Source: Promethearchaeum syntrophicum
Lineage (GTDB): Archaea > Asgardarchaeota > Lokiarchaeia > Sigyniarchaeales > Promethearchaeaceae
Length of the DNA stretch: 32,000 nucleotides
NCBI RefSeq assembly: GCF_008000775.2
Contig: NZ_CP042905.2
Span: forward strand, 4,290,001-4,322,000
Direction of reading: 5' to 3'
In this document: one piece after another, positions 5,759 to 32,000 of the stretch
How positions within the stretch are numbered: the first letter of the stretch is position 1
How the letters are laid out: the number at the start of each line of letters is the position of its first letter
Notes under the pieces: model-generated
Told to the model about the DNA's origin: nothing
What the model saw: the letters and a program-made list of their open reading frames with translations, nothing else
The model's database searches: none
Position numbers and translations under genes: made by a program

Positions 5759-5781
5759 GAATAGAAGTGTTTATTTTTTTT

Positions 5782-7323: not shown

Positions 7324-7423
7324 AATCTCTTCCCCCTAAGACATTAATTCAGTTATACTCCATTTTTTATTTACCATATTTTTAAATATATCAATTAAAT
7401 AAAGAGGATAGGAGAAGGAGTAT

Positions 7424-8689
7424 TTGAACGATCAAGACCCGAAATTGCGGACAAAAATCAATTCTGAGCAAAATATATCAAATAAAGAAGAATTTCCTTC
7501 AGAATTAAGACAAGAAAAAGTGAACCATTTTTCCGCTTCTATAGATAATTCTAATCAAGAATTCTCAAGAAATTTTATTGTTCCTTTAAACGGTAAAGAT
7601 AATCAAATAAAAAATGTTCAAGATTTCTTTTCACAATATGGAGAAATCAAAAATCTATTACAATTTAATTTAGATAAAATAGAAAAGCACAATGAAAGAA
7701 ATGGTGAAAAATTGGAAATTTATGATAACTTAGGGAAAATATCAGGAAAAATTCTTATAAAAACACCGAGAAATCATGAAATTCAATTATTTCTTCAACA
7801 ATTCTCATCTACAAATTATTGTAAATTATATAAAATTAATATATATAGACTTCTTGAGAAAATTAATAGAAATATTATTTCTTTGAAAGAAGAATTGATT
7901 AGATTTTTTATATTAAAAGATTTTCCTGAACCTTTTATTATTTTATTTCCTCTGGATGAGCTAGAATATTTCTCTCAAGAAGAAATCGTTCTCTTGTATT
8001 CAATATTTAAAATCACAGATAATTTTGCACCGATTTCATTAGGGGGATTATTTTTATTCGTCTCTTCACTAAAGCAAAATTTGCCACATGAGTTTAACAA
8101 TTTCTTTGATTTAGAAGTTAATGTAAAAATACCAGATATACAGAGCAAAAAGCGCTTAATAGAATCAATTTTAAAGAATATTCCGAATAATAATGTTGAT
8201 ATCGATCATTTTTCATTACAAGTAAAGGATTGGAATGTAGCATCAATTAGAAAATTCATTATTTTTGCTTATAGATACTTTCAAATTAATCAAAAAGATG
8301 ATTTAACAAGTAAAATGAAGTTTAATACCAAATTTCTTAGCGATTTAATTGAAAATAATTCAATAAATTTCAGAAACGATATTTCTTTAGATAAAAAAAA
8401 CGCAATACAGATTAATAATACAATAAATTCTCAACCTAAATTATTAGATTCAGGTAAAAAATTAAACCAAAACTTAGAAAACCAATTATATCAAGAATCT
8501 GCTTCAAAAAATTATGAGGATTTATGCATAATATTAGATAAAATTCAAAAAGGGATTGTTCTTTTGCCATTTGAAAGGCAAACACTAGCAGATAATTCCT
8601 TTATTCTAAAAGAAGACCCACAAAAAGCCTTGCAAAAACTAAATAAAGCAAAATCTACCGTTGATAAGTTTAAAAAGATTATTTCTTAA
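7424..8689 (+). CDS. Hypothetical protein with a degenerate classical-AAA+-like core (Walker A lost)
   Basis: 421 aa. A TTG start is preceded by GGAGAAGGAG, and there is no internal Met for about 300 codons. ILIKTPRNHEIQLF sits where GPPGTGKT is expected. PFIILFPLDELEYF is Walker-B-like. KIPDIQSKKRLIESILKNIP...VDIDHFSLQVKDWNVASIRKFIIFA resembles the AAA lid. Confidence 0.6.
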   Translation: MNDQDPKLRTKINSEQNISNKEEFPSELRQEKVNHFSASIDNSNQEFSRNFIVPLNGKDNQIKNVQDFFSQYGEIKNLLQFNLDKIEKHNERNGEKLEIYDNLGKISGKILIKTPRNHEIQLFLQQFSSTNYCKLYKINIYRLLEKINRNIISLKEELIRFFILKDFPEPFIILFPLDELEYFSQEEIVLLYSIFKITDNFAPISLGGLFLFVSSLKQNLPHEFNNFFDLEVNVKIPDIQSKKRLIESILKNIPNNNVDIDHFSLQVKDWNVASIRKFIIFAYRYFQINQKDDLTSKMKFNTKFLSDLIENNSINFRNDISLDKKNAIQINNTINSQPKLLDSGKKLNQNLENQLYQESASKNYEDLCIILDKIQKGIVLLPFERQTLADNSFILKEDPQKALQKLNKAKSTVDKFKKIIS

Positions 8690-8714
8690 ATTATTAATTT
8701 AACACAATTTTAAA

Positions 8715-11700
8715 GTGAATACTATGACCGAAATGAAAGGATTGGCAGAAAACATTGAAAAAACTAAATCAATGGAGTTATCCCCAATTCTAGATGAGAA
8801 AAAAGAGGTCATAAAAGATTTTAAAAATAAGATCAAATTAGAAAAAATTATTTTAGAAGACTTCATCTCATTCGATTATAATGAAGTAATATTTCATCCT
8901 GAATTTACAATCATTACTGGTCCTAATGGTGTTGGCAAATCTTCAATATATCATGCTCTTAAATTTGTACTAGGTTCTAATGATTATGATGGACGATATA
9001 ATAAATGGTCTAATTTTATTAGAACAGGACAAAAATATGCAATTGTAACTCTTTACTTGCAATTCTCTGGAAAAAAATATTGTCTTAAAAGAACCGTTTT
9101 TAAGGATAAAGCCCCAAAATTTTCTTTTCAAGGTCCAGATGAAAAAGAATTTCACGATGTTTCAGCAAAAAAGATTCAAGAATTTGTAGATAAAATTGGT
9201 ATTGATCCTGACCATGTGTTCTCATTTATGTCTCAAGGTAAAATTGGATCTCTTAAAAATTTTAAAGATGAAGCCTTGTGCACATTTGTGGAAAAAGGAT
9301 TAGGACTTAATATTCTTAGAGAAAATATATTAAGTCAAAAAGAACGAATAATTTATTTAAAAAAGGAATTTTCTGTGTTAATTTCACAACGAGACAGTAT
9401 GAAATATCAACTAGTTGAATTAGAACCTAAATTAAAACGTTTAGAGAAAAAAAGATCTTTGCTAAGTAAATTAGAAGGGTTAGATAATGAGCTATTATGG
9501 GCACAAAAAGAAGATATTATAAAACAAATTGATGTATATCGCGATCAGATTCATTTTAAAGAAAATTCAATTAAAGATCTTGAATTAAATATCAGTACTC
9601 TTCAAGAAGAAGAAAACTCCATTGAAGAGAATTTGAAACAAGAAAAAGACGAATACAAGATTACAATTGATATTTTTGCACAAAAAAAAGCGCATCTTGA
9701 AATTTTAAAAAAAGAAATTAATAAATGGACCTCTGAAAAGAATCAAATTGCTGATAAAATCGAGAAAATATCTAAAGATATAGATAAATTACAGTTAGAT
9801 ATTAATAAACAAGGTTTTGAGCTTAAATCTTATCAAAAGAGCATGGATGATTTGAAAACCTTAACTGGAGAAGCAAAACTTTTATTAAAATCATATGAAG
9901 ATGAGGAACGCTCTTTAAATAAAAAATTCATTAAATATCGGGAAATATTGTTTGAATTTGATTCAAAAACACAAATAGTTTCAAATTTAGAAGACAATTT
10001 GAAAGAAATAGAAGAAAGTCATAACAAAAAGGAATCAGAAATCAATGAAAAAGCCAAGGAAATTCAAAAAATCGACCATGAATTGAAGGATTTCAAATGG
10101 TTTATGGAAAATCCAAAAAAAGATTTACAAATTAAAATGAAAGCTTTAGTAGAAAAATATCAAAAATCAATAAATATCTTCAATGACGATTTAGTACAAT
10201 TACAAATTCAATATAAAACATTAACAAGTGAGATAGAACGCGTTAAACAATCTGTTCATGATAAAAGCATGCCTAAACCAAAATCCATAATATCCATGAT
10301 GGATGAAATTAAACAGAGGAACATGCAAAGTATTGGTCCGTTGATTGATTATATAACTTTTGATCCTTTATATCAAATGGCGGTTGAATCAATCTTTGGT
10401 TCAAGAGTCTTATATAGTTTCATTGCTAAAAATCATGAAGAATTTGCCCTACTTAAAAATATGGCTCAAAGATATAATGCAAGATGTAATCTATATTTAG
10501 AAAAACAAAAAAACCTAACTCCTTTACCTTCATTGAATGATTCTCAAGAAATGGGAGTATTTGGGTATTTAGCAGAAATAATAAAACCTACAATCCCGGA
10601 ACCTGCAATTCAAAAAGTTATTCATTCCGTAGCAAGTATAACACTTGTTGTTAAGGATCATATTGCTGGAACTAACTACACTCAAAAATTTAAATCCAGA
10701 AATTGGATTGTAACCTTAGATGGAGAACAATTAAGACCGAAAAAATTTGTTTTAGAAGCGCGTCCTTATATTTCAAATAATAAACAAAAAATTACAAGTG
10801 TCTCTCAGGCAAAAATAATATTAAATGAATTAAACGAAAAATCTGAAAGAAATCGTCATAATTATAATAAGCGAAGTTCAGATCTACAAAACCTTAAAGA
10901 AAAACATAAGAAAGTATTGAAAGATTTAGCACAAATTGATGTCCTATTAGTAAAATATAAACAAAAGGAAATAACTACTAAGGTTAAAAACGCTCTAATA
11001 AATGAGAGAGAGAAAAATTATACTAAAATTCAAGAAAAAAAGAAAAAGATTGAAGTTATTAAAAAAGAGATCGAAATTTTGAAAGAAAAATTACCCGATG
11101 ATTCAATATTAAATCATGATCGACTAACTCAACTACCAAATTTAATAGTTACTCAAAAAAATAAGATAACAGAATATGAATCTAAAAAAGACATTAATAT
11201 TCAGCAAATAAATGATATAAAAATTAAGGAAAATCTTCTTTCAAATGAAATAAATGCAAAAACAAAAGAAAAACAAGAGATAATTTCGGATTTAACTTCT
11301 CAAGATAAACATTATTATGATCTCATTCAAGAAAATATCAAATTAACAGGTCAAATTAAAAACATTAAAAATGAAATTGAAGAGAGCAACACAAAAATCA
11401 CTTCCTTAGAATTGGAAGAAAAAAAGATTTCTGAAGAAAAAAATCAACTGTTAATTCGGAAGGCCACGTTGAAAAATTCGATCGATGATATTAAATCCTA
11501 CATTGAAGAGAAAGAGAAGAAAATTGAAAGAATTAGCAATATTTTAAAGGAGATCAAAGAAAAAGTTTACCCAAAGCGTCCAATCATCGAAATTCAAAAT
11601 GATATCGAAGAAATAAATAAAATCTTGAGATCTTATTTCGATGTAGATGAAAATATCATATTAGAAAAACAACGAATTGAGGATTCAATAAAAAAAATAT

Positions 11701-12266
11701 TAGAAAAGCAAGAAACATCAGATAAAGAGATAAAAGCAGCAAAAGAAGCAGAATTAAAAATTGAACAAAACTATCTTAACAAATTCGAAAAATCTGTAGA
11801 TATTTTAGAAGATCTCGTAAATAAAAAATTAAAATTTACCCAAACTGATTTTAATGTGAATTTAAATTTAGAAGGGGAAATTGAAGAATTTAAATTAACA
11901 ATTAAAGCCGTTTCAACAAAAAATCAAAAAAATGTTCGTCCTTTTACAGCTTTGAGTGGTGGGGAACAATCTATGGTTGGAATTAGTCTAATGTTATCAT
12001 TGCACTATTTTAATCCTTCTCCTTTCAATATCTACGATGAAATTGAAATGTTTTTGGACAACCTAAACGCAGAAATCATCGCAAAATTAATCTTCGAAAT
12101 TACAACAAGTGGAATTCAATGCATTTTAATAATGCCAGATTCTTCCATTTCAATATTATATTATGCAAATAAAGTCATTGGGATTAGTAAAAATGGAACC
12201 AATGGTTCATCAACTGTGCATTATGCCAAGGCGCGAAAAAATTCTAATTTCCAAACTCTTAATTAG
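8715..12266 (+). CDS. smc: SMC-family chromosome ATPase (hinge-containing) with divergent head motifs resembling SMC5/6
   Basis: 1183 aa.
- Walker A: FTIITGPNGVGKSS
- Q-loop: FMSQGKIGSL
- Long K/E/I-rich coiled coils
- SMC hinge: IGPLIDYITFDPLYQMAVESIFG ... IVTLDGEQLRP
- Signature motif: LSGGEQSMVGISLMLSL
- Walker B / D-loop: FNIYDEIEMFLD
There is no CxxC zinc hook. The start is GTG 8715 or ATG 8724. Confidence 0.85.
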   Translation: MNTMTEMKGLAENIEKTKSMELSPILDEKKEVIKDFKNKIKLEKIILEDFISFDYNEVIFHPEFTIITGPNGVGKSSIYHALKFVLGSNDYDGRYNKWSNFIRTGQKYAIVTLYLQFSGKKYCLKRTVFKDKAPKFSFQGPDEKEFHDVSAKKIQEFVDKIGIDPDHVFSFMSQGKIGSLKNFKDEALCTFVEKGLGLNILRENILSQKERIIYLKKEFSVLISQRDSMKYQLVELEPKLKRLEKKRSLLSKLEGLDNELLWAQKEDIIKQIDVYRDQIHFKENSIKDLELNISTLQEEENSIEENLKQEKDEYKITIDIFAQKKAHLEILKKEINKWTSEKNQIADKIEKISKDIDKLQLDINKQGFELKSYQKSMDDLKTLTGEAKLLLKSYEDEERSLNKKFIKYREILFEFDSKTQIVSNLEDNLKEIEESHNKKESEINEKAKEIQKIDHELKDFKWFMENPKKDLQIKMKALVEKYQKSINIFNDDLVQLQIQYKTLTSEIERVKQSVHDKSMPKPKSIISMMDEIKQRNMQSIGPLIDYITFDPLYQMAVESIFGSRVLYSFIAKNHEEFALLKNMAQRYNARCNLYLEKQKNLTPLPSLNDSQEMGVFGYLAEIIKPTIPEPAIQKVIHSVASITLVVKDHIAGTNYTQKFKSRNWIVTLDGEQLRPKKFVLEARPYISNNKQKITSVSQAKIILNELNEKSERNRHNYNKRSSDLQNLKEKHKKVLKDLAQIDVLLVKYKQKEITTKVKNALINEREKNYTKIQEKKKKIEVIKKEIEILKEKLPDDSILNHDRLTQLPNLIVTQKNKITEYESKKDINIQQINDIKIKENLLSNEINAKTKEKQEIISDLTSQDKHYYDLIQENIKLTGQIKNIKNEIEESNTKITSLELEEKKISEEKNQLLIRKATLKNSIDDIKSYIEEKEKKIERISNILKEIKEKVYPKRPIIEIQNDIEEINKILRSYFDVDENIILEKQRIEDSIKKILEKQETSDKEIKAAKEAELKIEQNYLNKFEKSVDILEDLVNKKLKFTQTDFNVNLNLEGEIEEFKLTIKAVSTKNQKNVRPFTALSGGEQSMVGISLMLSLHYFNPSPFNIYDEIEMFLDNLNAEIIAKLIFEITTSGIQCILIMPDSSISILYYANKVIGISKNGTNGSSTVHYAKARKNSNFQTLN

Positions 12267-15940: not shown

Positions 15941-18439
15941 TTATAGAATATTTTTAAAATCTTCAATTATTTTCTTACTATTTTTTTTATTGCCCGAATT
16001 ATTTAATAAGTTTCTAATTTTTTCTTCAATTTCATTTGATATTTTTTTCCCACCCCGAACGGAAGGTTCAAAATTTTGAATGTAATCTACCATATCATCA
16101 GGGAGATCATAGATTTTACCCAAAATAATGTCACAAATATCGATAATATTTTTCATTTCCGAAGTGTTAAACCTGCGGTGTTCCTTATCAAAACATTGCA
16201 TGAGTGATTTCATTAAAAAGGAAGAAAATTCTTTAAGAAGGTCAAAAAATGTCTTTAATTTATCTACAAGATCTTGAGAAAGGGGAAAAGCTTTCATTAT
16301 ATCAGAATTCATGTGCCTTCCATCACTATAAATTCTAAACCATACGTAATACAGTGAACTGTTAATTAGAATTAAGATAAAATATTTCAACCCTTCTATA
16401 TTTCTTGATATTTCTACCAGTGCAATCTGCGTTCCATAATAAGGTGGTTTTTCCCAAGCATTATACCAATAATTTCCTGATATTCTAACGGATATTAAAT
16501 CTTCAACCTTTTTTCCTTCTTTCTCAAATTGCATCAATTTATTTCTATACTCATCAATATTTCTAATAATTAAGAATCTGTTTAAAATATCGCCTAAAAT
16601 TAGTAATTTTTCATTAGAATTTAGAGTATAATGTTCTGAGAGCAACTCCAAAAATTCTCTTGCCCTTTTTTCACCTATTTTGGGAAGTCTGTGCTTTTTA
16701 TCAAAAGAAACTCCTATATTTTTTCCTAATAGAAAATTATTAGCCAGTACATATTTAATATTTCGAAGATCTGGCATTTTTCTAAACATATTTGTTGTCA
16801 GAATGTCTGAAAATTGATTTTTATTTAATTTTATGGAATTCTTGTTTATACATTGAATAATTGAAACAGATTGTGTCATTTTGGTAAAAAATCGGCATTT
16901 ATCTCTGTCAAAAGATGCAATTTTACTTATTTCATAGGAATTTACGATTTTTTGGCGCGTTTTAGAAAGATCTTTACTAAAACATATAGCATAACTAGTT
17001 AAAAATGCAATTATACCTTTGTTTCGATTGAGATCAATGGCCCGTTCAATGAAAACTGACGAAATTTCATTCAAGAATGAATAAAATGGATCGATTTCTT
17101 TTTTCTCAGAATTTGAAAGTAAATTTCCATACGGAGGGTTTCCTAAAATAATATCAAATCCAAAATTATTCGAGTTAATTGGAAAAACATCTGGAAATTC
17201 AACATTCCAATGAAAGGGTTTAATTTTGGTATTCTTTTTTATTTCTTTGGTATCTTTTTCACTCCAATTAATAGAACCTAATAAAGAATTTCCTGTGAGA
17301 ATATTTAATCTCAATAACCTAGGATTCAAAAATCTTGAAGATGAAAAATCCCATGAATCAATATAATTTAGAAAAAGTCTAATTTTCGCAATAATTACAG
17401 CGCGTGGATTAATATCTACTCCATATATAGCTGACGAAAATAAAAATTTCTTTAGAATGGCAATGGAATCTTTAAATTTTTCAAAGGAGTTTAAATCTAT
17501 TATCTCATCAGAAACTGTTATTAACAATACTCCCTTAATTTGGTAATTTCTTGATGCCGTCCATATATATTTGTATAATTTAATTAATATTTTTGTTATA
17601 CTAGCTAGAAAATGCCCAGATCCAACAGCTGGGTCCAAAATTTTAAAATTATTAATCTTTACAAAAAAATCTTGAATTTTATTAAGTTTTAACTTAAATT
17701 CATATTGATCTAGTTCTGATTTAAAGAAATTCTCACAATTTATCCAAAAAGGAACTTTTAAATTATCTGAAAACAATTTGGCATTTAGACTAGATTCAGC
17801 AAGGAAATCACAGATATTATCCGGAGTATAATATGCCCCCGTTGATTTTTTAGTGTCATCTGATAAAATTTTCTCAAACAGAGCTCCAATGATAAAATCA
17901 TTAATTGGACCCCCCACAATTTCCTGCAAGATGAACATATTAAATAATGGAAGTGAGTTAATTATTGATTCAGGAATTTTTTTGGATATTTTGATTTTTT
18001 CAAGTTGTGTACTATCAATATCTTGAAAAAATGCTTCATTTGGTAAGGACTTGTGAATAAACCCATCCCAAAGAAAACCGTGATTATCTCTCAGGAAATA
18101 ATCTCCTATAATAACGAGTTCTTCTTGGTTACTATTCCTTGATATGACGGGTAATTTTTTAGAATTCGAAGGAAAAATACTATTAAAAAATTTAGTTAAG
18201 AATTCAGAATAAAATTGGTGATTTAGGGATGACTTTTTTCGATTAAAGTGATTTAAAAAATATTCAGAATCTTTATTAAAACACAGCTTTCGTTGCAAAT
18301 ACCAGAGAGCGGTCATTAAAAGCACAAATCTATTTATTTTTTCTGGATTTATATCTGACTTGCTGATTCTTTGCAAGTATTCGCAAGATTTTTTAAAAAT
18401 ATTAAAAAATGAATCAATTTTTTTATTCTGTAGGCTCAA
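15941..18439 (-). CDS. N6-adenine DNA methyltransferase, gamma class (Eco57I/TaqI-like) with a C-terminal target-recognition domain; no nuclease domain seen
   Basis: The motifs are GAYYTPDNICDFL, ILDPAVGSGHFL (motif I), IYGVDINPRAVIIAKIRL and DIILGNPPYG (motif IV). The C-terminal TRD-like segment LINSSLYYVWFR and the tail KIYDLPDDMVDYIQ are typical of this family. Confidence 0.9.
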   Translation of the reverse strand: MSLQNKKIDSFFNIFKKSCEYLQRISKSDINPEKINRFVLLMTALWYLQRKLCFNKDSEYFLNHFNRKKSSLNHQFYSEFLTKFFNSIFPSNSKKLPVISRNSNQEELVIIGDYFLRDNHGFLWDGFIHKSLPNEAFFQDIDSTQLEKIKISKKIPESIINSLPLFNMFILQEIVGGPINDFIIGALFEKILSDDTKKSTGAYYTPDNICDFLAESSLNAKLFSDNLKVPFWINCENFFKSELDQYEFKLKLNKIQDFFVKINNFKILDPAVGSGHFLASITKILIKLYKYIWTASRNYQIKGVLLITVSDEIIDLNSFEKFKDSIAILKKFLFSSAIYGVDINPRAVIIAKIRLFLNYIDSWDFSSSRFLNPRLLRLNILTGNSLLGSINWSEKDTKEIKKNTKIKPFHWNVEFPDVFPINSNNFGFDIILGNPPYGNLLSNSEKKEIDPFYSFLNEISSVFIERAIDLNRNKGIIAFLTSYAICFSKDLSKTRQKIVNSYEISKIASFDRDKCRFFTKMTQSVSIIQCINKNSIKLNKNQFSDILTTNMFRKMPDLRNIKYVLANNFLLGKNIGVSFDKKHRLPKIGEKRAREFLELLSEHYTLNSNEKLLILGDILNRFLIIRNIDEYRNKLMQFEKEGKKVEDLISVRISGNYWYNAWEKPPYYGTQIALVEISRNIEGLKYFILILINSSLYYVWFRIYSDGRHMNSDIMKAFPLSQDLVDKLKTFFDLLKEFSSFLMKSLMQCFDKEHRRFNTSEMKNIIDICDIILGKIYDLPDDMVDYIQNFEPSVRGGKKISNEIEEKIRNLLNNSGNKKNSKKIIEDFKNIL

Positions 18440-22927: not shown

Positions 22928-24394
22928 ATGATAACGCAACGAGTAGATGAGAATATCTACGAAGTTCCAGCAGATATGAAATTAATTAAAGTTGAAGATA
23001 AAATCCTAAATTTTAACATGAAAGTGCCAGCGCGAATCTATGCTAATGAATATTTGATGGAAAGAATTAGTAAAGATAAAAGTATTGATCAAATTACAAA
23101 TGTTGCATGTTTACCTGGAATTAGAAAACATGTAATTGCGATGAGCGATGCTCACCAAGGATATGGATTCTGTATAGGAGGAGTTGCTGCCACGGATATT
23201 GAAGGAGGAGCAATATCCCCTGGAGGAGTTGGTTATGATATTAATTGTGGCGTGAGGTTATTAAAAACAGGTTTAGAGTACAGTGAGGTTTCAGCCCAAT
23301 TACCAGAATTAACAGAAGGATTGTTTCACAATATACCAAGTGGTTTAGGTTCTAAGGGAAAACTTCATATAACACCTACTGATTTAAATCAGGTTTTGGA
23401 TGAAGGAATTAATTGGGCGATAGAAAAAGGATTCGGGTATGATAAAGATCGTGAATTTTGTGAAGATCATGGTTTTACTCAAGGAGCTGACAGTTCTTTA
23501 GTTTCAAAAAGAGCAAAGGATAGAGGGATAAGACAACTAGGATCTTTAGGTTCAGGAAATCATTTCATCGAAATTCAACGTGTTGAAGAAATATTCGATG
23601 ACCGGGCAGCAAAAATAATGGGAATCCAAAAAAATCAAGTTACCATGATGATTCATACTGGAAGTCGTGCAATGGGTCATCAAGTATGTACTGATTCTTT
23701 GCAGGAAATCGATCATTTAATGCATCGAAATGGGATTATTGCACCAGATCGAGAGTTGGGTTATGCCATAAGTGGAACTAAAGAAGCAGATCGATATTTA
23801 GCTCAAATGCGGGCAGCAGCTAACTTTGCTTGGACTAATCGGCATATCATCATGCACTGGGCCAGAGAAACTTTTCAATCGGTCTTAGGGCTTGAACCTT
23901 CACAAATGGAATTAATTTATGGATTAGCACATAATATTCTTAAACAAGAAGAACATGATCTTGGTAATGGAATGCGTGGAATGGTGAATGTTCATAGAAA
24001 AGGCGCAACCCGAGCATTCCCTCCTGGTCATCCCGATGTCCCTGATAAGTATAAAGAAATCGGTCAACCCGTGCTAATACCTGGAAGCATGGGGACGTCA
24101 TCATATTTATGTGTTGGCCAAGAGAAAGCAATGGATTTGAGTTTTGCTAGCACAGCGCATGGAGGAGGTAGAGAAATGAGTCGTTCAAAAGCAAAACGTC
24201 AATTTTGGGGTAAAACCATTAAACAAGAATTAGGAAAACAAGGGATTGTAGTTCGAGCAGCCTCCCTCAAAATTTTAGCAGAAGAAGCTCCTTTAGCCTA
24301 TAAAAATATAGATGAAGTAGTGGGAGTTTCACATAATTTAGGGATTATTAAGAAAGTTGCGAAGTTAATTCCGATAGGTGTAACAAAAGGATAA
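22928..24394 (+). CDS. rtcB: RNA 3'-phosphate / tRNA-splicing ligase RtcB
   Basis: The motifs MSDAHQGYGFCIGG, GGVGYDINCGVR, GSGNHFIEIQ, HTGSRAMGHQ and VHRKGATRAF (nucleophilic His) are present. The protein is 488 aa with no intein-sized insertion. Confidence 0.97.
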   Translation: MITQRVDENIYEVPADMKLIKVEDKILNFNMKVPARIYANEYLMERISKDKSIDQITNVACLPGIRKHVIAMSDAHQGYGFCIGGVAATDIEGGAISPGGVGYDINCGVRLLKTGLEYSEVSAQLPELTEGLFHNIPSGLGSKGKLHITPTDLNQVLDEGINWAIEKGFGYDKDREFCEDHGFTQGADSSLVSKRAKDRGIRQLGSLGSGNHFIEIQRVEEIFDDRAAKIMGIQKNQVTMMIHTGSRAMGHQVCTDSLQEIDHLMHRNGIIAPDRELGYAISGTKEADRYLAQMRAAANFAWTNRHIIMHWARETFQSVLGLEPSQMELIYGLAHNILKQEEHDLGNGMRGMVNVHRKGATRAFPPGHPDVPDKYKEIGQPVLIPGSMGTSSYLCVGQEKAMDLSFASTAHGGGREMSRSKAKRQFWGKTIKQELGKQGIVVRAASLKILAEEAPLAYKNIDEVVGVSHNLGIIKKVAKLIPIGVTKG

Positions 24395-24424: not shown

Positions 24425-24829
24425 ATGGACACAACAGAAATTTTTACAATTCGGAATTTTGAACCTGTGAAAATTCGGGGTGAATTATATGGAAACCTTA
24501 TAGAGTTTAACAAAATTAAAAGGCATGTTAAATTCACCTCGAAATTTCATCAACCAGATTTTATTCATAACGATCAAATTGAAAAAATGATTATCAAATT
24601 TGATAATAAGAGAAAATTATTATGGTTGGGAATCGCAACAATAATACTTTTCATTGGAATTTTTGTTCTTCTTGCCTGGATTCGGTTACCACCATGGAAA
24701 ATCTCAATTAAACTAAAAAAGGAGCAGAAACCCATTGTAATTCGAGCACAGATAGATGAAAGCAAGGCTTCAAATCTCGCCAGTTTTTGTGCCGATCAAT
24801 TTCAAACGATTCTAATTAATCAAAAATGA
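24425..24829 (+). CDS. Hypothetical single-pass membrane protein
   Basis: 134 aa with one TM helix (LLWLGIATIILFIGIFVLLAWI). No motif recognised. Confidence 0.45.
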   Translation: MDTTEIFTIRNFEPVKIRGELYGNLIEFNKIKRHVKFTSKFHQPDFIHNDQIEKMIIKFDNKRKLLWLGIATIILFIGIFVLLAWIRLPPWKISIKLKKEQKPIVIRAQIDESKASNLASFCADQFQTILINQK

Positions 24830-24848
24830 TAATCCACTCTGATTTTTT

Positions 24849-25550
24849 TTAAATATGAAGGTAGTGACCGAACTTTTCTTGTTTGGTCTTGAGATAATTA
24901 GCATCATATTGTTGAGGTGGAATTTCCAATGGGACTCTTTCTGCAATTTCAATTCCATAGTCACCCAAAACCATTTTTTCCGGATTGTTGGTTAATAAGC
25001 GAACCGATTTCACTCCAATTTTCTTCAACATCTCCGCAGGGATTTCATAATTACGTTCGTCAGGTTTAAATCCCAGCAAAACATTCGCATCCAAAGTATC
25101 TACTCCATAATCCTGGAGCGCATAGGCTCGAAGTTTATTTACAAGCCCGATCCCGCGCCCCTCTTCTTGGTGATACAACAGAATACCTCTCGCTTCTTTT
25201 TCAATTAATTGAAGAGATGTATGTAATTGAGGACCGCAATCACATCGCTTGGAACCCAATGAGTCTCCCGTAAGGCATTTGGAGTGAATTCTTGTAAGAA
25301 TATTTTCTCCATCTTCGATGTCACCTTTAACTACCATAATATGTTCCTTATTATCTCGGCTGTTTACAAATGCTAAAATTTTAAATTGTCCATATTCGCT
25401 CGGAAAATCTGCTACTGAGACCAAACTCACACATATCGATTTACTGCATGCCCCACATTCCAGACTATGTGGTGAATCATAACATTGGCGGATAAAATTA
25501 ATATCTTGATTGATAATTTCATCAAATGTCGGTATTTTTACCATTTTCAT
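24849..25550 (-). CDS. ribA: GTP cyclohydrolase II (RibA type) with a Cys-containing N-terminal extension of ~40 aa
   Basis: RIHSKCLTGDSLGSKRCDCGPQL, RGILLYHQEEGRGIGLVNKLRAYALQD and VRLLTNNPEKM align residue for residue with E. coli RibA. Confidence 0.92.
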   Translation of the reverse strand: MKMVKIPTFDEIINQDINFIRQCYDSPHSLECGACSKSICVSLVSVADFPSEYGQFKILAFVNSRDNKEHIMVVKGDIEDGENILTRIHSKCLTGDSLGSKRCDCGPQLHTSLQLIEKEARGILLYHQEEGRGIGLVNKLRAYALQDYGVDTLDANVLLGFKPDERNYEIPAEMLKKIGVKSVRLLTNNPEKMVLGDYGIEIAERVPLEIPPQQYDANYLKTKQEKFGHYLHI

Positions 25551-25753
25551 TACTTTAATAAGTTCGTTAGGACTTAAATTTTGACTTTAATTCTGAGAAT
25601 GAAATCAACTTATTACCTTTTTTCTAATACCTCAGAATCTCCTATTCTTTTTAAAAAAAGTTACGTCAATTCTCAAAATTATTTAAGAGTCGAAAAAGAG
25701 AAAGAATCAATTAAACCTGATTAATTTTTAAAATATCATTAGAAGAAAGAAAA

Positions 25754-25869
25754 TGTAGGGAGAGGGATTTGAACCCTCGTTTCACTAAGAACTGGAGCCT
25801 CGGTCCAGCGCCGTTTTGACCAATTTTGGTATAACACCAAAAATGTAGACCATGCTTGGCTATCCCTAC
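25754..25869 (-). tRNA. tRNA-Leu (anticodon GAG), class II, with a ~30-nt insertion (putative non-canonical intron) in the D-loop
   Basis: Hand fold.
- Acceptor: GTAGGGA/TCCCTAC
- Discriminator: A
- D arm: GCC...GGC, interrupted by TACATTTTTGGTGTTATACCAAAATTGGTC
- Anticodon stem: CTGGA/TCCAG
- Anticodon loop: CC-GAG-GC
- Long variable arm: TTC-TTAGT-GAA
- T arm: GAGGG-TTCAAAT-CCCTC
The gene is 116 nt, and 86 nt without the insertion. Confidence 0.8.
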
Positions 25870-25911
25870 ATAAAAAAGTATGATCTAACAAATCATTCAT
25901 AAAAAATAAAT

Positions 25912-27846
25912 TTATCTATCTTTATTTGTTTCTGTTTCAACCATTTTTCGAACTTCAATTTCTTGGAAAATCATAATCAAACCATTGATGATTAAAATTA
26001 TCCCAAAGGTAATGAATATGATGAAAAATAAAACTTTAAGAAATTCTGAGTCTTGATTGCTAAATGAGGGGAGATGAGAAGATAATATAAAAATATCATT
26101 CAATATTAAAATCCCATAGACTAATAGAACCAAACCTATAAATATTAGAATACTAGCCCCTACAAAATTTAATCTCCGAGCAATTATTTCTTCTTTTTCT
26201 GAATGGTGAGTTATCCCACCGATTACTATGGTTTTCTCATCCTTCAAGAGTTTCGGTAAAATCCTTCGAATTGTAAAAAGATCGAATAATAAAGATATAA
26301 TCCCAATACATCCCATCAAATAGATTGAAATATTAAAGAAGAGTAGATCTGAGCCGTTAAAAGAAACTTTTATAGATAAAATACTCCAAAGTAGGATTAA
26401 AATAATGCTGATACCAAATTTACTACCGTTTAAAAGTAATAATAAATGAGTACGACGCGCAATACTAAAAAGGTAATAAATTATTCCCATTAGGATTAAA
26501 ATGATTCCAACTATTACACCTAGAAATCCTATGTCGGTGGAAAACATTGAAAATATTAAGATGAGACTTGCAATTATTGCCATAATGGGTATAAATGGAT
26601 ATAATGGAACCTTCCAAGGGCGAATAAGGTTTGAACGTGTATTTCTGAGAATAATTAAAGATATAGATAGGATTACCATAGATAATAAAAAGATAAAATT
26701 ACCTATCTCGGAAATCAAATTGATATCAGCAATAAATGTAATTATAATTATAAGCACAAAAGATGAACCCATAGCTACCCATTGAACTTGTTTTTTATTT
26801 TTTTTCAAAAATCCTTTATTTAAAAATCCGTCTCTTGCCATTGAATGGAGTAAGTGGGTGGACATTTGAAATCCTGAATTGATTGATGTAGTAGTTGCAA
26901 TCATACCAATTAAACCAATAAAATAAATGCCGAAGTTTCCAAATCCAAGACCGAATATATCTGCTAAAGGAGCATCAGATTGGTCTAAAATGATAGAATT
27001 CCAAGAATTTGATGATGTACTTCCAAGATTAATTAATGCAACAAAGCTAACTAACCAATAAATAACAATTCCGATTATAATGGATATTAGATATACCCGC
27101 GGAATAGTTTTTCTCGGTTCTTTAATTTCATCAAATTTAGTAGTAAGTGATTCAAAAGTAGAATTCCATTCATAAACGCAGAAAAAAACAAAGGAATATG
27201 CAGCGGTTGATAAGATTGGTCCAATTTCCATCCGTTCTTGAAAAATTTCAAATCCAAAATCATTATTTAGAGAACTTCCTAGAAAACCGCCCAATATAAT
27301 AAAGGTAATAAATCCAAATAGGAGAGTGTAGGTTAGAATCTTCATTATGCTATTAAGTTTATCGGGATAATATAAAGTAAAGACAAAAAAGAACAGAAGA
27401 ACTGCAAACCCGATAATAGAAACCGTAGTTGAGTTCAAAGAATTAACTGGAAGAAACACGGTCAGAGATAAGGCAAATCCAATTCCTGATAATGCAGTAA
27501 ATAATAAATTTCCAATCCACATTCCCCAACCGATTAGAAACCCCGAAAGACCGCCTATAGCTTCTTTTGAGAAAGAGTAGCCACCACCGGCTATCGGCAA
27601 AGACAAAGCAAGCTCACTGTAGATCATTATAAATAAGATCATAAGAAGTCCGCTAAGGATCAAAGAAATAAGGAGACCAGAATTAGCCTTTAATATAACA
27701 ATCCCCAGAATGGCGAAAATTGGTCCTCCAATAGTCCCCCCCAGAGCTTGCTTGAGCATTCCCAACATGCCCATTTTCTTTTGGTTTTTTTTTGAGAGTG
27801 TTACTGAAGGTTCTATTTCTTCATCAATTGCCATATCTAAAAACAT
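25912..27846 (-). CDS. APC-superfamily amino-acid/polyamine permease with about four extra C-terminal TM helices
   Basis: The N-terminus (LGGTIGGPIFAILG) and SELALSLPIAGGGYSF are typical of the APC family. There are about 12 core TM helices plus a ~200 aa hydrophobic C-terminal extension. I chose the internal Met (MFLDMAIDEE) as the start, to avoid overlap with the divergent gene. Confidence 0.8.
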   Translation of the reverse strand: MFLDMAIDEEIEPSVTLSKKNQKKMGMLGMLKQALGGTIGGPIFAILGIVILKANSGLLISLILSGLLMILFIMIYSELALSLPIAGGGYSFSKEAIGGLSGFLIGWGMWIGNLLFTALSGIGFALSLTVFLPVNSLNSTTVSIIGFAVLLFFFVFTLYYPDKLNSIMKILTYTLLFGFITFIILGGFLGSSLNNDFGFEIFQERMEIGPILSTAAYSFVFFCVYEWNSTFESLTTKFDEIKEPRKTIPRVYLISIIIGIVIYWLVSFVALINLGSTSSNSWNSIILDQSDAPLADIFGLGFGNFGIYFIGLIGMIATTTSINSGFQMSTHLLHSMARDGFLNKGFLKKNKKQVQWVAMGSSFVLIIIITFIADINLISEIGNFIFLLSMVILSISLIILRNTRSNLIRPWKVPLYPFIPIMAIIASLILIFSMFSTDIGFLGVIVGIILILMGIIYYLFSIARRTHLLLLLNGSKFGISIILILLWSILSIKVSFNGSDLLFFNISIYLMGCIGIISLLFDLFTIRRILPKLLKDEKTIVIGGITHHSEKEEIIARRLNFVGASILIFIGLVLLVYGILILNDIFILSSHLPSFSNQDSEFLKVLFFIIFITFGIILIINGLIMIFQEIEVRKMVETETNKDR

Positions 27847-27878
27847 GCTTTTATGTCTTAAAAATATATGATTAAATA

Positions 27879-28385
27879 ATGGGAAAAAAGAATTTAAAAA
27901 ATGAAGATATTGAAAAAGAACTTGCACAAGTTGATGAAATTTCGAATATTGAAGATATTCCAGATGACATTTTACTCAATGAAGATTTGGATGACCCCTT
28001 ACTTGATGAAATGGATGCGATTTTACATGGAAAAGAATACAAACCAAAGCCTAAACCTGAACTTAAGGAAAAATTATATAAAAACTCCAAAAATCAGGAA
28101 GGGTCTAAATCAAATTCAACCAATATTTCTAATAATATCGAAATCCCCCAACAAATTGTAAAGGAATTCACCATTTTCCTATTAAAAAAATCAAAAAGCT
28201 TTGAAGAAATGTCATTTCAAACAATTCTTAGGAAAATTCCCAAGGAATGGCAATTTACAGAGTTAATTTTAATTGATACAATAGAGAGTATAATTGAAAA
28301 AAAAGGAATTACATCTTTTAATATGAAAATGACCGCTAATTCTCTTAAATTTTATCCAATTAAGAAGAAAAAAAACAATAAGTGA
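27879..28385 (+). CDS. Hypothetical protein: acidic N-terminus, KP-rich linker, winged-helix-like C-terminus
   Basis: 168 aa. The regions are EDIPDDILLNEDLDDPLLDEMDAIL, KPKPKPELKEK, and a C-terminal ~70 aa with a helix-helix-helix-wing pattern. No named family recognised. Confidence 0.5.
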   Translation: MGKKNLKNEDIEKELAQVDEISNIEDIPDDILLNEDLDDPLLDEMDAILHGKEYKPKPKPELKEKLYKNSKNQEGSKSNSTNISNNIEIPQQIVKEFTIFLLKKSKSFEEMSFQTILRKIPKEWQFTELILIDTIESIIEKKGITSFNMKMTANSLKFYPIKKKKNNK

Positions 28386-28393
28386 TTAGAAAA

Positions 28394-29203
28394 ATGAATC
28401 CAGTCCCAACTTTCTATTTCATTTTAGATAAAAATCATAATTTTCTCGTGGAAAGTGTTGAAGGAAGAAAAGATCAAGAAAAATATTTTCCAAAAATTTC
28501 AGCTAAATTTAAAAAGAAACTCCAGGAGTCATTTCCGGAACAATTTCTTCTAAATCAGAATTTTCATCTAAAAATATTAAATAATACTGTTATTTTTGAA
28601 GTAATATTACTCAAACAAGAAATTAAACCAGAATTCCCCAATTTAAGATGGGTTTCAATATCAAAGATTACAGATAATGTAAATGTGGTTATTAATTCAA
28701 CTGAAAAAATAAGTATAGCCCCCGGTAAAATTCAAGAGATTTATTATTCAGAAGTTTTACAAGGGTATTCGCTGAAGGGAAAAGATTTTGAGGTATGGCA
28801 TTTTTGTAATAATGAATCTGATGCAAATAATCTTGCTGAATTGGTGAGAAAAGGGATAAAATGTGCGACAGCCAGTCTTTATGATGTTTATCAAGCAGAA
28901 AATGAACCGATCCCATCAATAGGTTCTCATTCAGTGATAATTAATTATGATGGTTTACCTCAATCCATAATTCGAACAACTAAGGTAGATATAGTTCCTT
29001 TTGAAGAAGTTTCCGCTGACTTTGCCAGAATTGAAGGTGAAGGTGATAAATCTTTGAACTATTGGCGTCGCGTGCATAATGAGTTTTTTTCAGAAGAATC
29101 CAAAGTATATAATGTGGCTTTCACGCCTAGAAGTTTAGTGATATGTGAACAATTTGAAGTGGTAAAAATTATTATTGAAAACAAAGAAAAAACTCATATA
29201 TAG
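28394..29203 (+). CDS. ASCH (PUA-like, YhfF/YqfB-type) domain protein with an uncharacterised N-terminal domain of ~130 aa
   Basis: The C-terminal half fits the ASCH/YhfF pattern: WHFCNNESDANNLAELVRKGIKCATASL...PIPSIGSHSVIINYDG...VPFEEVSADFARIEGEGDKSLNYWRRVHNEFF. The start is ATG 28394 (GTG 28382 is also possible). Confidence 0.7.
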   Translation: MNPVPTFYFILDKNHNFLVESVEGRKDQEKYFPKISAKFKKKLQESFPEQFLLNQNFHLKILNNTVIFEVILLKQEIKPEFPNLRWVSISKITDNVNVVINSTEKISIAPGKIQEIYYSEVLQGYSLKGKDFEVWHFCNNESDANNLAELVRKGIKCATASLYDVYQAENEPIPSIGSHSVIINYDGLPQSIIRTTKVDIVPFEEVSADFARIEGEGDKSLNYWRRVHNEFFSEESKVYNVAFTPRSLVICEQFEVVKIIIENKEKTHI

Positions 29204-29224
29204 TAAAAATCATATTATGTAAAT

Positions 29225-29734
29225 ATGGCTATGCTATACGATGATGAGCACTTCTGTAAACATTGCAATAAAAAAGTTGCTCATGTCCATTTTTGCACCC
29301 CAGCAGAGGAATCTAAGAAATTTAAATGCGAATATTGTGAAACTGAAAACATTAACCACCGTCATATGTGTTCTGAGAAATTGAAACACATTAAATTCTA
29401 CTGTAAAAATTGTGGAGCAGTTGCTGTGGATGAAACTCATGTATGTAATCCAATACCAATAGAAGAAGAATTGAAAGAACATTGGGATAAAATTAGTGAA
29501 AAATCAGAGTCTGAAGTTTTAACTTCTTGTGGTATATGTGGACAACCCGTAAGTCCTCCCGGTCATTATTGTGATCAGAAATTTCCTTACGTTTGTAAGT
29601 ATTGCGGGCAGGAAATCACTGCTGGTTATCACCAATGTAAAAAAAAATCAGGAAAATATAAATTTATTTGTAAAACGTGTGGTCGATTAGGCGTTAAATC
29701 AACAGATGTTTGCGCACCGGCTCCGATTGATTAA
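29225..29734 (+). CDS. Cys/His-rich protein made of six CxxC-x8-(H/D)xC units (putative multi-zinc-knuckle protein)
   Basis: 169 aa. The six units are CKHC..HFC, CEYC..HMC, CKNC..HVC, then an acidic linker, then CGIC..HYC, CKYC..HQC and CKTC..DVC. Confidence 0.7.
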   Translation: MAMLYDDEHFCKHCNKKVAHVHFCTPAEESKKFKCEYCETENINHRHMCSEKLKHIKFYCKNCGAVAVDETHVCNPIPIEEELKEHWDKISEKSESEVLTSCGICGQPVSPPGHYCDQKFPYVCKYCGQEITAGYHQCKKKSGKYKFICKTCGRLGVKSTDVCAPAPID

Positions 29735-30025
29735 AATTAGACTTATTTACATAATTTTTTCTTATTTTTGGCTAAAATTCCATATATTTATGAAAAACTT
29801 CTCGCATCAGTTACCCTAGGATTAACCTAGTATTATCATCATCGGTTCATTATAAACCTAAGACTTCCTCTGATTTCATCATCTGCAATTAAATAAAAAA
29901 TCAAACAAATGAAAAATTTTGGTATTTTGAATTTGATAAAGTGAAAGAGATGAAAAAGGTTTTAAAATGGTAAAAATCAAATGTAGATCAAATTGAAATT
30001 TGAATAAATTAAATGGTTAAAAAAA

Positions 30026-30982
30026 ATGGTCGTTATAGCAGATGGACGGTTTGAACTACCAGAAAGATACTTGTATTCTTCACAACATGTTTTTTTGGAT
30101 ACAAAAAAAAAGATCGCGGGTCTGGATCAAATAGGATATGCATATTTATCTAACCCCACTGAATTCAAAGTCTTAGTTGAAGAGAAGGTACAAATGAATG
30201 AACCTATTGCAGTTATTACAACCGATCGTGGAATTACGACACTTTATTCTCCATGTGCGGGAAAAATTAAAACTATAAACCAAGATCCTTTAAAAAATAT
30301 GGAATTGGATACTTATACGAAAGGTTTTATCTTGGAATTTGAATCAATTTCTGAAATTGACCCAACACTAATCACTGGAGATAAAATTGAACCTTGGGCT
30401 AATCATGAAGTAAAAACATTACTCAAAAATGAATATTCATTTAAAGTTATCGAAATTGGGGATTCAGCAGCAGGTAAAACCGCAATAAAAGTTAGATTCA
30501 CCGATGATTATTTTAAGCAGGATCTAAAAACAACTTTAGGTGTCGATTTCGGATCCAAAGAATTAAAATGTGAATATATAGCAGACGACACATTATTTGC
30601 AGGGGTGTATCATTTTAATGCAAAATTGAATGTATGGGATGCTGCAGGACAAGCTCACTTCGAAAAAATTCGCGGAATGTATTATAGGGATGCTAAAGGA
30701 GCCCTACTTTGTTTTGATGTTAACAATCCAGTTTCATTTAAGAATTTGGATACTTGGGTTGATGAATTAGATGAAAATGTTGGACGGAAGGTGCCAGTAT
30801 TATTAGTGGGCAATAAAATTGACTTAGAACGCCGTGTGAAGGCTAAAGATGCAGAAGATTATGCAGAAAAGCGAGGTTTCATTGGTTATGTGGAATGTTC
30901 TGCCAAAACAGGCATCGGTATTCAAGAAGCATTTATGAAATTAGCTCTTGCGATTTATAAATATGAAGAAGGTTTAAGTTAA
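30026..30982 (+). CDS. Rab/Ras-like small GTPase fused to an N-terminal GcvH-like (lipoyl-fold, non-lipoylatable) domain
   Basis: GTPase motifs:
- G1: GDSAAGKT
- G2: TTLGVDF
- G3: WDAAGQ
- G4: GNKIDL
- G5: CSAKTG
The first ~130 aa fit the H-protein pattern (YSSQHVFL..IAGLD...EPIAVITTDRGITTLYSPCAGKIKTINQD...KGFILEFE). There is no C-terminal CaaX. Confidence 0.88.
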   Translation: MVVIADGRFELPERYLYSSQHVFLDTKKKIAGLDQIGYAYLSNPTEFKVLVEEKVQMNEPIAVITTDRGITTLYSPCAGKIKTINQDPLKNMELDTYTKGFILEFESISEIDPTLITGDKIEPWANHEVKTLLKNEYSFKVIEIGDSAAGKTAIKVRFTDDYFKQDLKTTLGVDFGSKELKCEYIADDTLFAGVYHFNAKLNVWDAAGQAHFEKIRGMYYRDAKGALLCFDVNNPVSFKNLDTWVDELDENVGRKVPVLLVGNKIDLERRVKAKDAEDYAEKRGFIGYVECSAKTGIGIQEAFMKLALAIYKYEEGLS

Positions 30983-30987
30983 ATTCA

Positions 30988-32000
30988 TTAAGCTTTTTTT
31001 TTATGGGAACGAATAAGCCCTTTAATTAGAGAAATTCTTAGTAAAGCAGTAGATAAGATAAAAGACTGAAATATGGGTGCTAGTGGTGTAAAATTGGATT
31101 CAAAATTAACCACAGAAATCCTAGGTTCATCTTGAAAATTCTTTATTAAATGAGTATTATTACTAATTAATGCCATGCTTCCAGCGCGATTTAGGATTAG
31201 ATCTACTAGACGGGGAAGCGTATCTTTTTCAGTTTCTCCTGGTTCAAAAGCTCCAATCATAATGCATTTTATTTTTGTATTAATTGCTTTTCTTTCAAAA
31301 ATTTGAAAGGGTCCATGAAAAAAGAGACCTAAAGATATCCCTTCACACATTGAACCGATAAAACTGTTTGCGTTAAGTGCTAATAATTTGCAGGAAGATT
31401 CGCTTACAGGATCTCGAGAAATTAAATATACAATTTTAAAATCTTGACCTAAGAAATCAACTAAAATCTTTGTTTGTGTAGGTTCAACTTTTCTATATTC
31501 TTTTAATTCCGATATAAATTTCATAATTTTACTATGGATGTCTTCGGAAATTGGATCTTTTCCAAGTAATATCTGTGAAATGAAATAAAGGACTACAATT
31601 GTATGCGGAAAAGATTTTGATGACAAAACTATTTCAGAATCAAGATATATAGGAAGATTTATTCCACAATAGGAAGAAATGGGTGATTTTTTATTATTTG
31701 TTACTAACCATATAAGGTTTGGATCTATGTTTAGTATGTGTAATTGCTCAATTGCATTTTTTAATAAACGAGATTTACCAGATGTGGAAATAAAGATATA
31801 CAGGGTGCTTGTATCATATTCCTTAGGAAGAAAATAATCATAAAATTCGGTCATTTCAATATTCTGCCACGTAAAAGAGACACTTTCCTTGTCATTCATT
31901 AAAAGATATTTTGGAATTTCAGAGGCGAAAAAATTGAATGTATTTCCAATAAACACAACATGAGAGAACTGTAATGTTGATAGAATTTCTTGAATATGGT
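30988..32000 (-). CDS. SIS-domain sugar-phosphate isomerase-like protein (two SIS-like halves), 5' end outside the window
   Basis: LYIFISTSGKSRLLKNAIEQL fits the SIS motif (iSxSGxT). The reading frame stays open from the GTG at 31956 to the window edge (..HIQEILSTLQFSHVVFIGNT..), so the gene is probably truncated by the window. Confidence 0.55.
   Translation of the reverse strand, partial: HIQEILSTLQFSHVVFIGNTFNFFASEIPKYLLMNDKESVSFTWQNIEMTEFYDYFLPKEYDTSTLYIFISTSGKSRLLKNAIEQLHILNIDPNLIWLVTNNKKSPISSYCGINLPIYLDSEIVLSSKSFPHTIVVLYFISQILLGKDPISEDIHSKIMKFISELKEYRKVEPTQTKILVDFLGQDFKIVYLISRDPVSESSCKLLALNANSFIGSMCEGISLGLFFHGPFQIFERKAINTKIKCIMIGAFEPGETEKDTLPRLVDLILNRAGSMALISNNTHLIKNFQDEPRISVVNFESNFTPLAPIFQSFILSTALLRISLIKGLIRSHKKKA

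Follow-up and report, generated by a model that had tools for sequence, protein, structure and literature searches.

A Rab-like GTPase fused to a predicted cofactor-less H-protein fold in Asgard archaea

Introduction

Asgard archaea encode dozens of eukaryote-like small GTPases, and the roles that such proteins played before there was an endomembrane system are a question of eukaryogenesis. For Promethearchaeum syntrophicum MK-D1, 74 small GTPases were included in a survey based on AlphaFold2 (AF2) models (Tran et al. 2024, Commun Biol 7:273, PMC10933270), in whose Supplementary Figs 4-5 two paralogous proteins, WP_147661646.1 and WP_147662223.1, fall into the Rab clade and are labelled "GCVHG". 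Here, we describe the gene of the former protein. It lies within a stretch of 32,000 nucleotides of the MK-D1 chromosome (contig NZ_CP042905.2, positions 4,290,001 to 4,322,000; hereafter, the window) and joins a domain with the fold of the glycine-cleavage H protein (GcvH) to a Rab-like GTPase.

A main-text figure legend of the same survey lumps all domains other than roadblock and longin under the sign '?'. In the accessible parts of its text and supplement (PMC10933270), neither 'lipoyl' nor 'glycine cleavage' occurs, and the architecture is not discussed beyond its label. The preliminary description of this DNA knew of no fusion of an H protein to a GTPase; this has to be corrected, as the accession had already been tagged. 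In the searchable literature, that supplementary label aside, we did not find a discussion of this Asgard GcvH-GTPase architecture. As far as can be told, the architecture itself is on record, while the analysis of its lysine, the origin of its N-terminal domain, its paralogue structure and its synteny are not.

Another closely related system is LbpA, a GcvH-like protein that is genetically tied to hdr-like clusters and acts in sulfur oxidation (Cao et al. 2018, eLife 7:e37439). LbpA proteins carry a strictly conserved lysine and usually two cysteines, one near each terminus, which some archaeal members lack (eLife 7:e37439).

The anatomy of the MK-D1 protein, a real fusion of a GcvH fold with a Rab-like GTPase, is practically certain. 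As to its function, we favor, with a probability of about 0.6, a Rab-like switch that carries its H-protein-fold domain as a cofactor-less docking or adaptor module.

Results

The fusion is a single gene of a conserved Asgard family

The open reading frame comprises 957 nt and encodes 318 amino acids, with an ATG start, a TAA stop and no interruption (coordinates of all features are collected in Table 1). Its product is 100 % identical to WP_147661646.1 / QEE14702.1, which is encoded on the 4.32-Mb chromosome of MK-D1 and annotated in the database only as "GTP-binding protein". The G+C content of the window is 30.5 %.

A search over 5.8 billion clustered proteins yielded 149 matches, and the figures given below rest on the 120 that were listed. 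Among these, 103 are full-length (300-345 aa) and divided into the same two parts. Their sources are assemblies from NCBI, JGI, ENA and Logan, among them the complete chromosomes of MK-D1 and of two Lokiarchaeum ossiferum genomes (4.3, 6.0 and 6.3 Mb). Every match that bears an organism name is from an Asgard archaeon (Promethearchaeum, Lokiarchaeum, Harpocratesius, "Lokiarchaeia", Helarchaeota, Hodarchaeota or Sigynarchaeota). This taxonomic spread is read from the source names of the matches; a single-protein scan of the GTDB genomes returned 4 loci.

The two domains meet at a very short, conserved junction, where W124 never varies and conservation extends to E128, L132, Y137 and K140. Mean pairwise identity amounts to 0.50 in the N-terminal domain and 0.64 in the GTPase, and the two halves have diverged in a correlated manner (r=0.82). 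Judging from this pattern, the two domains appear to evolve as one unit.

These data also bear on the possibility that two separate genes had been joined artificially near 30400-30440, by misassembly or by a frameshift, which the preliminary description had named as a way in which it might fail. Such an artefact is as good as impossible and can be considered effectively excluded: the frame is open throughout, the architecture of about 318 residues recurs in 103 clusters and forms a single gene in over 100 independent assemblies, complete genomes among them, and both the conserved junction residues and the correlated divergence argue against a chance merger. The fusion is, thus, one genuine gene of a conserved, Asgard-restricted family.

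The N-terminal domain has the fold of the H protein

Taken as a single sequence, the N-terminal domain stays below the Pfam thresholds, scoring 17.3 bits for GCV_H (PF01597; cut-off 22.2) and 19.6 bits for Biotin_lipoyl (cut-off 22.1). A profile built from 40 sequences of residues 1-135, searched against the PDB, matched a dozen solved H proteins (best E=4e-6), in alignments that span from residues 10-107 up to 17-124. Taken individually, 33 of the 40 orthologues match PF01597, the best with E=7.6e-11. Here as in the GTPase half (see below), the similarity lies well beyond chance.

The AF2 model of the domain alone is of high confidence (pLDDT 94.7, pTM 0.87). The fold search was run with this model of residues 1-135, as the full-length model matched GTPases only. 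All 22 Foldseek matches in the PDB with E<=1e-3 were H proteins or GcvH-L, with probability 1.0, TM 0.6-0.74 and 120-137 aligned columns. The family profile, the Pfam matches and the modeled structure together lead us to conclude that the N-terminal domain has specifically an H-protein fold, a hybrid barrel-sandwich that is told from minimal lipoyl domains by its N-terminal strands and C-terminal helix.

The alternative, a generic barrel-sandwich domain of the biotinyl/lipoyl type with no particular relation to H proteins, has two single-sequence results in its favor, since the best Pfam match of the MK-D1 domain is Biotin_lipoyl (E=8e-4) and its best PDB sequence match is an E2 lipoyl domain. 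It is nevertheless highly improbable, and effectively excluded, in view of the family-wide comparison. Biotin_lipoyl is matched by 8/40 orthologues only, the profile aligns to H proteins over the residue ranges given above, and in the Foldseek run that ranked the 22 H proteins first, E2 lipoyl and biotin carboxyl carrier (BCCP) domains appear at E>0.02 and TM ~0.3.

In the AF2 model, the domain closes with a helix (residues 118-134) that holds the invariant W124 and the near-invariant E128, a W-x3-E motif. The preliminary description had compared residues 1-130 with E. coli GcvH. The peptides that it quoted are all present, namely YSSQHVFL at residues 17-24, IAGLD at 30-34, TTDR at 65-68, LYSPCAGKIKTINQD at 73-87 and KGFILEFE at 99-106, and the comparison proved sound. 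The E. coli GcvH sequence used for comparison scores 23.3 bits against the family profile, equal to the E. coli H-protein entries of the PDB. The W-x3-E motif is presumably absent from E. coli GcvH, as it does not occur in this sequence.

The lipoyl lysine has been lost

In the hidden Markov model (HMM) alignments, Arg68 stands opposite the lipoyl lysine of Thermus thermophilus GcvH, Mycobacterium tuberculosis GcvH and an E2 lipoyl domain. The distance from this position to the conserved proline is 8 residues, the same as in GcvH and E2. The 103 homologues have N (24), Q (18), R (17), K (12), S (9) or other residues here, and with an entropy of 3.15 bits the position is the most variable of the hairpin. 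The frame around it is kept: G69 is found in 100/103, P76 and G79 are invariant, and T66, T72, L73 and S75 are also conserved. The hairpin is, thus, under constraint as a structure or a surface, and the side chain at its tip is free, as is expected of a domain that has ceased to carry a cofactor.

With its lipoyl lysine lost, the N-terminal domain is predicted to be a cofactor-less module that cannot act as a swinging-arm carrier. The earlier proposal that the ESVK lipoylation site had been replaced by TTDR, which precludes lipoylation, is thereby borne out for the MK-D1 protein and extended to a site without constraint across the family.

Could the domain still be a working acyl or lipoyl carrier, of the GcvH or LbpA kind, coupled to the GTPase? 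It has retained the whole H-protein fold and the hairpin frame, a lysine occupies the tip in those 12 members, and the closest stand-alone relatives (see below) keep theirs. All the same, we regard this as scarcely credible and effectively excluded. The MK-D1 hairpin offers no substitute, K80 being the sole lysine in residues 55-80, and not one of the 16 deep-branching members has a lysine at the variable position 68. The score for NCBIfam gcvH (TIGR00527), 19.6 bits, is far under the curated cut-off of 115.85. Moreover, neither gcvT nor gcvP was found among the annotated open reading frames of the window or of 17 related loci inspected (some of which are cited below by L numbers), and the window contains no lipoate-ligase gene.

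The GTPase half is complete and Rab-like

Residues 140-311 cover positions 1-161 of the 162 of the Pfam Ras profile (PF00071), with E=5e-46 and 156.7 bits (cut-off 21.6). None of the five G motifs is damaged, and across 60 aligned homologues they vary little or not at all. The best match among solved structures is a Rab from Thorarchaeota (7ezb, E=1.6e-34). Next come Rab11, Rab2 and Rab1, with identities of about 30-36 %; Rab26, Rab21 and Rab10 are also among the top PDB matches. In accordance with this, Foldseek matched the full-length model to Rab/Ras proteins only, including Rab32, Rab8, Rab2 and Rab11 at TM ~0.8. The assignment of residues ~137-318 to a complete Ras-superfamily GTPase of the Rab type, made earlier from the motifs TTLGVDF (residues 169-175) and WDAAGQ (204-209), is therefore well founded. 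The LGVDF of switch I and a YYRDA motif resemble the RabF motifs of the Rab family.

Since the nucleotide-binding and catalytic motifs are complete, the GTPase half is most likely a competent switch that cycles between GTP and GDP as other Rab-type switches do.

Two traits set the GTPase apart from canonical Rabs. The first is an insertion of 10 residues (186-195) in the interswitch hairpin, which faces a gap in Thor-Rab 7ezb and a similar one in Rab11. It is found in nearly all of the 103 members, D188 being kept in 95 and G193 in 91 of them. The second is the absence of a C-terminal cysteine motif (CC, CXC or CAAX), the site of geranylgeranylation by which eukaryotic Rabs are held to membranes: none of the 103 family members has a cysteine in its last 10 residues. 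The MK-D1 protein ends in ...KYEEGLS and has cysteines only at positions 77, 182, 229 and 291.

A probable origin of the N-terminal domain in a stand-alone GcvH-like subtype

A HMMER search with the N-domain profile, run exhaustively over 1.84 billion representatives, recovered the fusion family at E<=1e-26 and, after a gap, mostly stand-alone proteins of about 140-150 aa from E ~1e-15 onward. The closest of these stand-alone relatives are Asgard proteins. The stand-alone proteins keep the lysine (for example, in "EAGKG" or "ESGKW"), and 39 of the 40 best-scoring ones have the W-x3-E helix motif. Their scores against the profile, 58-75 bits, are followed by 52 bits for Atabeyarchaeia GcvH and 23-40 bits for bacterial GcvH. 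From these comparisons, a distinct subtype of GcvH-like proteins, which stand alone, bear the lysine and measure about 140-150 aa, appears to be ancestral to the N-terminal domain of the fusion.

At two loci, L015 and L016, the stand-alone relatives (140-148 aa) fall just under the NCBIfam GcvH cut-offs and lie outside glycine-cleavage operons. In L015 (4639-6447), HdrC-like, HdrB-like and GcvH-like genes follow in this order, with the last two sharing 4 nt. In L016 (3612-6423), the stand-alone gene also comes after an HdrC-like/HdrB-like pair, with a 282-aa gene on the opposite strand in between.

Two paralogue lineages

In a distance tree, the family forms two paralogue lineages that extend throughout Lokiarchaeia. 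Each lineage has a single representative in MK-D1, in L. ossiferum and in Harpocratesius; the window gene belongs to lineage A. Two contigs carry the paralogues as tandem neighbors. We also noted, beside the tandem pair on the 9-kb contig L008, a third fusion-like gene (5295-6656, minus strand; 323 aa, ~40 % identical) and a 120-aa Ras fragment, which points to a local growth of the family in certain lineages.

As a separate observation, the lineages differ at position 68. Lineage A tends to a basic residue (R or K in 17/24 members). In lineage B, the preference is for Q, S or A; in the deep clades, it is for N or Q. These differences could reflect different partners of the two paralogues.

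The existence of two old lineages, each kept once in the three taxa just named, also lends itself to the main rival of an external docking role, namely that the N-terminal domain acts internally, either as a platform on which A and B paralogues dimerize (compare the roadblock domains of RagA/RagC) or as an autoregulatory lid over either the switch regions or the lengthened interswitch hairpin. The tandem arrangement on two contigs fits such a role, as do the coexistence of the conserved interswitch insertion with the N-terminal domain in nearly all members and the very short, conserved junction. On the other side, to our knowledge H proteins are not recognized as dimerization modules, deep-branching clades appear to be single-copy per locus, and the geometry between the domains in the full-length AF2 model (pTM 0.62) is not confident. 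On balance, we consider an internal role unlikely.

Gene neighborhoods

The surroundings of lineage A are marked by an SIS-domain gene downstream (in the window, L004, L007, L011 and L014) and by RtcB upstream (in the window, L004, L012 and L014). Full-length SIS homologues adjoin the fusion gene in L004, L007, L011, L014 and L017. In L004, L012 and L014, RtcB is the gene immediately preceding the orthologue; in the window, about 5.6 kb of genes separate the two, which indicates a local insertion or rearrangement in MK-D1. This segment (24425..29734) encodes a 134-aa open reading frame, a GTP cyclohydrolase II, an amino-acid permease, a 168-aa open reading frame, an ASCH-domain protein and a Cys-rich protein. 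At four loci, the SIS neighbor itself is duplicated in tandem (L004:6009-8227, L007:9605-11815, L011:5259-6949 and L014:3977-6045).

A second kind of neighbor is a HdrC-HdrB-HdrA-MvhD(FlpD)-Fer4 cluster, which adjoins family members in L003, L007, L009, L010 and L017. This adjacency is seen in lineage B and at a tandem pair. Both neighbors are found together in L017, which represents a deeper clade: a single fusion gene follows HdrCBA-MvhD-Fer4 after 155 nt and precedes SIS by 36 nt, with all genes on one strand. The contexts of lineages A and B, therefore, look like two halves of one older arrangement.

In lineage B, a conserved hypothetical protein of about 166-169 aa is encoded 5-25 nt downstream of the fusion in MK-D1, L. 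ossiferum and Harpocratesius. Members of its family, which is found in Asgard archaea only and has a size of about 160-175 aa (e.g., DSAG12_01132 in MK-D1 and NEF87_002034 in L. ossiferum), also follow the tandem pairs and lie near lineage A in L. ossiferum. Neither the single sequences, searched in Pfam and the PDB, nor the family profile, searched in the PDB, gave a match. Two of 22 members show a sub-threshold Pfam similarity to Fuz_longin_1 (the longin of MON1/FUZ/HPS1), with 20.7 bits against a cut-off of 26.1. This lead makes the small protein a candidate regulator of these GTPases, as a platform for guanine nucleotide exchange (GEF) or GTPase activation (GAP).

We also considered the 169-aa gene of the window at 29225..29734 as a possible counterpart of this partner of about 169 aa and rejected it, since the alignment is unrelated; the small-partner profile has no match among the window open reading frames. 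The product of this gene contains repeated Cys/His-rich units (C-x2-C ... H-x-C) with weak double-zinc-ribbon matches only.

In MK-D1, the fusion gene seems to form a transcription unit by itself. A scan for sigma-70 promoters and terminators detected sites no more often than in shuffled sequence, its bacterial model being inapplicable to an archaeon.

Table 1. Coordinates of the fusion gene, its parts and its neighbors (window positions, unless a locus is given; n, number of aligned homologues)
Feature	Coordinates	Strand	Evidence or remark
Whole GcvH-like/Rab-like fusion gene, lineage A	30026..30982	+	ORF, exact protein match, 103 full-length homologues among 120 listed matches
N-terminal GcvH-fold domain, residues 1-134, predicted cofactor-less	30026..30427	+	AF2, Foldseek, profile, PF01597
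Arg68 codon, hairpin tip, equivalent of lipoyl lysine	30227..30229	+	HMM alignments
C-terminal helix of GcvH-like domain, residues 118-134, running straight into the GTPase	30377..30427	+	AF2 model
Rab-like GTPase domain, residues 137-314	30434..30967	+	Pfam Ras, PDB matches, Foldseek
G1 P-loop GDSAAGKT, residues 145-152	30458..30481	+	G145, G150, K151, T152 invariant, n=60
G2, switch I T170 within TTLGVDF	30533..30535	+	T170, G172, D174, F175 invariant, n=60
Insertion of 10 residues in the beta2-beta3 (interswitch) hairpin, residues 186-195	30581..30610	+	Gap vs Thor-Rab; conservation
G3, switch II DAAGQ, residues 205-209, including the catalytic Gln	30638..30652	+	D205, G208, Q209 invariant, n=60
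G4 NKID, residues 263-266	30812..30823	+	N263, K264, D266 invariant, n=60
G5 SAK, residues 292-294	30899..30907	+	S292, A293 invariant; K294 conserved in at least 90 %, n=60
Upstream intergenic region, 291 nt	29735..30025	+	AT-rich, 23 % GC
SIS-domain gene, convergent, 5 nt past the fusion stop	30988..31956	-	Weak Pfam SIS match
RtcB gene, upstream syntenic marker	22928..24394	+	Pfam RtcB E=1.7e-163
Small-partner genes	L003:2853-3362, L007:9103-9612, L008:4817-5293, L009:4977-5477, L010:4957-5466		
Further small-partner genes	L013:4006-4407 and 6422-6817	-	

Other genes of the window

A run of plus-strand genes (1442..12266) occupies the first part of the window. It begins with a DUF4332 protein (1442..2227) and a 1176-aa HEAT-repeat protein with matches to Cnd1 (condensin) and stromalin domains (2228..5758), continues with a 4-alpha-glucanotransferase (5767..7323) and an unannotated 421-aa open reading frame (7424..8689), and ends with a 1183-aa SMC-like ATPase that has a hinge (8715..12266). 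In this Asgard genome, a HEAT subunit of the condensin/cohesin type is, thus, encoded near an SMC gene. Restriction-modification methylase genes of the Eco57I/MmeI type are located on the minus strand within about 12 kb of the fusion gene in the window (15941..18439) and within about 4 kb of it in L007 (12707-14497); this is probably coincidental.

Discussion

The loss of the lysine, together with the strong purifying selection on the rest of the N-terminal domain, points to a docking role. On the reading that we favor, the protein would be a Rab-like nucleotide switch that takes its partner specificity or its location from the attached N-terminal domain rather than from a lipid anchor. The domain might still recognize an Hdr/Mvh-type iron-sulfur complex, or whatever its ancestral carrier served. 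That the partner is specifically such a complex is suggested by the ancestry of the domain and by synteny, and we regard it as a specific but doubtful candidate.

A fuller scenario can be drawn from the same elements. The operon's own GcvH-like carrier gene might have fused in place with a Rab-like GTPase gene at the 3' end of an hdr operon. The carrier domain, now devoid of lysine, would still dock onto the electron-bifurcating complex of the HdrABC-MvhD type, and the Rab-type switch would control the assembly, activity or placement of that complex, perhaps with the small longin-like partner as its GEF or GAP. We consider this whole chain of events improbable as it stands and offer it tentatively.

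Several observations weigh against docking, or against its link to Hdr. The full-length AF2 model reaches a pTM of only 0.62, as compared with 0.87 for the N-terminal domain alone, and so does not place the two domains confidently relative to each other. In MK-D1, the window gene has no adjoining Hdr cluster, and only its lineage B paralogue does. Within 5 kb of the two deeper members L005 and L006 there is no Hdr gene, and neither of the two neighbors (the Hdr cluster or SIS) was seen there. Adjacency among related Lokiarchaeia genomes may simply be inherited gene order without functional meaning. Finally, the stand-alone relatives do not have the two cysteines of the LbpA type (one of them, P0337, contains no cysteine at all), so that the analogy to the sulfur-oxidizing Hdr-LbpA systems is loose and we do not class these relatives as LbpA.

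It is worth stressing what such a family offers to the study of Asgard GTPases: a domain whose origin can be traced to a carrier of Hdr operons, a conserved neighborhood, two lineages and a candidate regulator gene, in a family present in MK-D1 and L. ossiferum, both of them in culture. Should the Hdr link be true, a Rab-like switch would be wired to energy metabolism and not to vesicles; docking on Hdr would represent a use of Rab-like GTPases outside membrane traffic as well as a new fate for the lipoate-carrier fold. If the link fails, the family would still be a clean case of a cofactor-carrier fold that was recycled as a cofactor-less module.

Comparison with known systems

In the 'GCVH-G' architecture, a GcvH-type domain is followed by a Rab-clade GTPase in one polypeptide, and both domains were verified here independently. 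With Thor-Rab 7ezb, Rab1, Rab2 and Rab11, the fusion has the GTPase fold and the G motifs in common. It differs from the Rabs by its additional GcvH-fold domain of 134 residues and its 10-residue insertion, and by the absence of a prenylatable cysteine at the C-terminus.

With GcvH, the N-terminal domain shares the fold from end to end and the signature positions Y-x3-H, G-(I/L)-(T/D), S-P-x-x-G, N and (D/P)-x-Y-x-x-G. Unlike GcvH, it has no lipoyl lysine, scores below the cut-offs of Pfam and NCBIfam, possesses the W-x3-E helix, lies outside any gcvTHP context and is attached to a GTPase.

The likeness to LbpA lies in the genomic context, as the stand-alone relatives of the fusion follow HdrC/HdrB-like genes and several family members, the lineage B paralogue of MK-D1 among them but not the window gene, neighbor HdrABC-MvhD clusters. 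In contrast to LbpA, the fusion has no lysine, C77 is the only cysteine of its N-terminal domain, and its hosts are anaerobic Asgard archaea.

The Asgard fusions of GTPases with longin or roadblock domains (the Rag-like LG, GR and LGR proteins) resemble it in another way. There, too, a domain attached to the GTPase takes over from a lipid anchor, and the genes of small partners of the longin or roadblock type often lie close by. In the family described here, by contrast, the accessory domain is a metabolic carrier fold, and the GTPase is Rab-like rather than Rag- or Arf-like.

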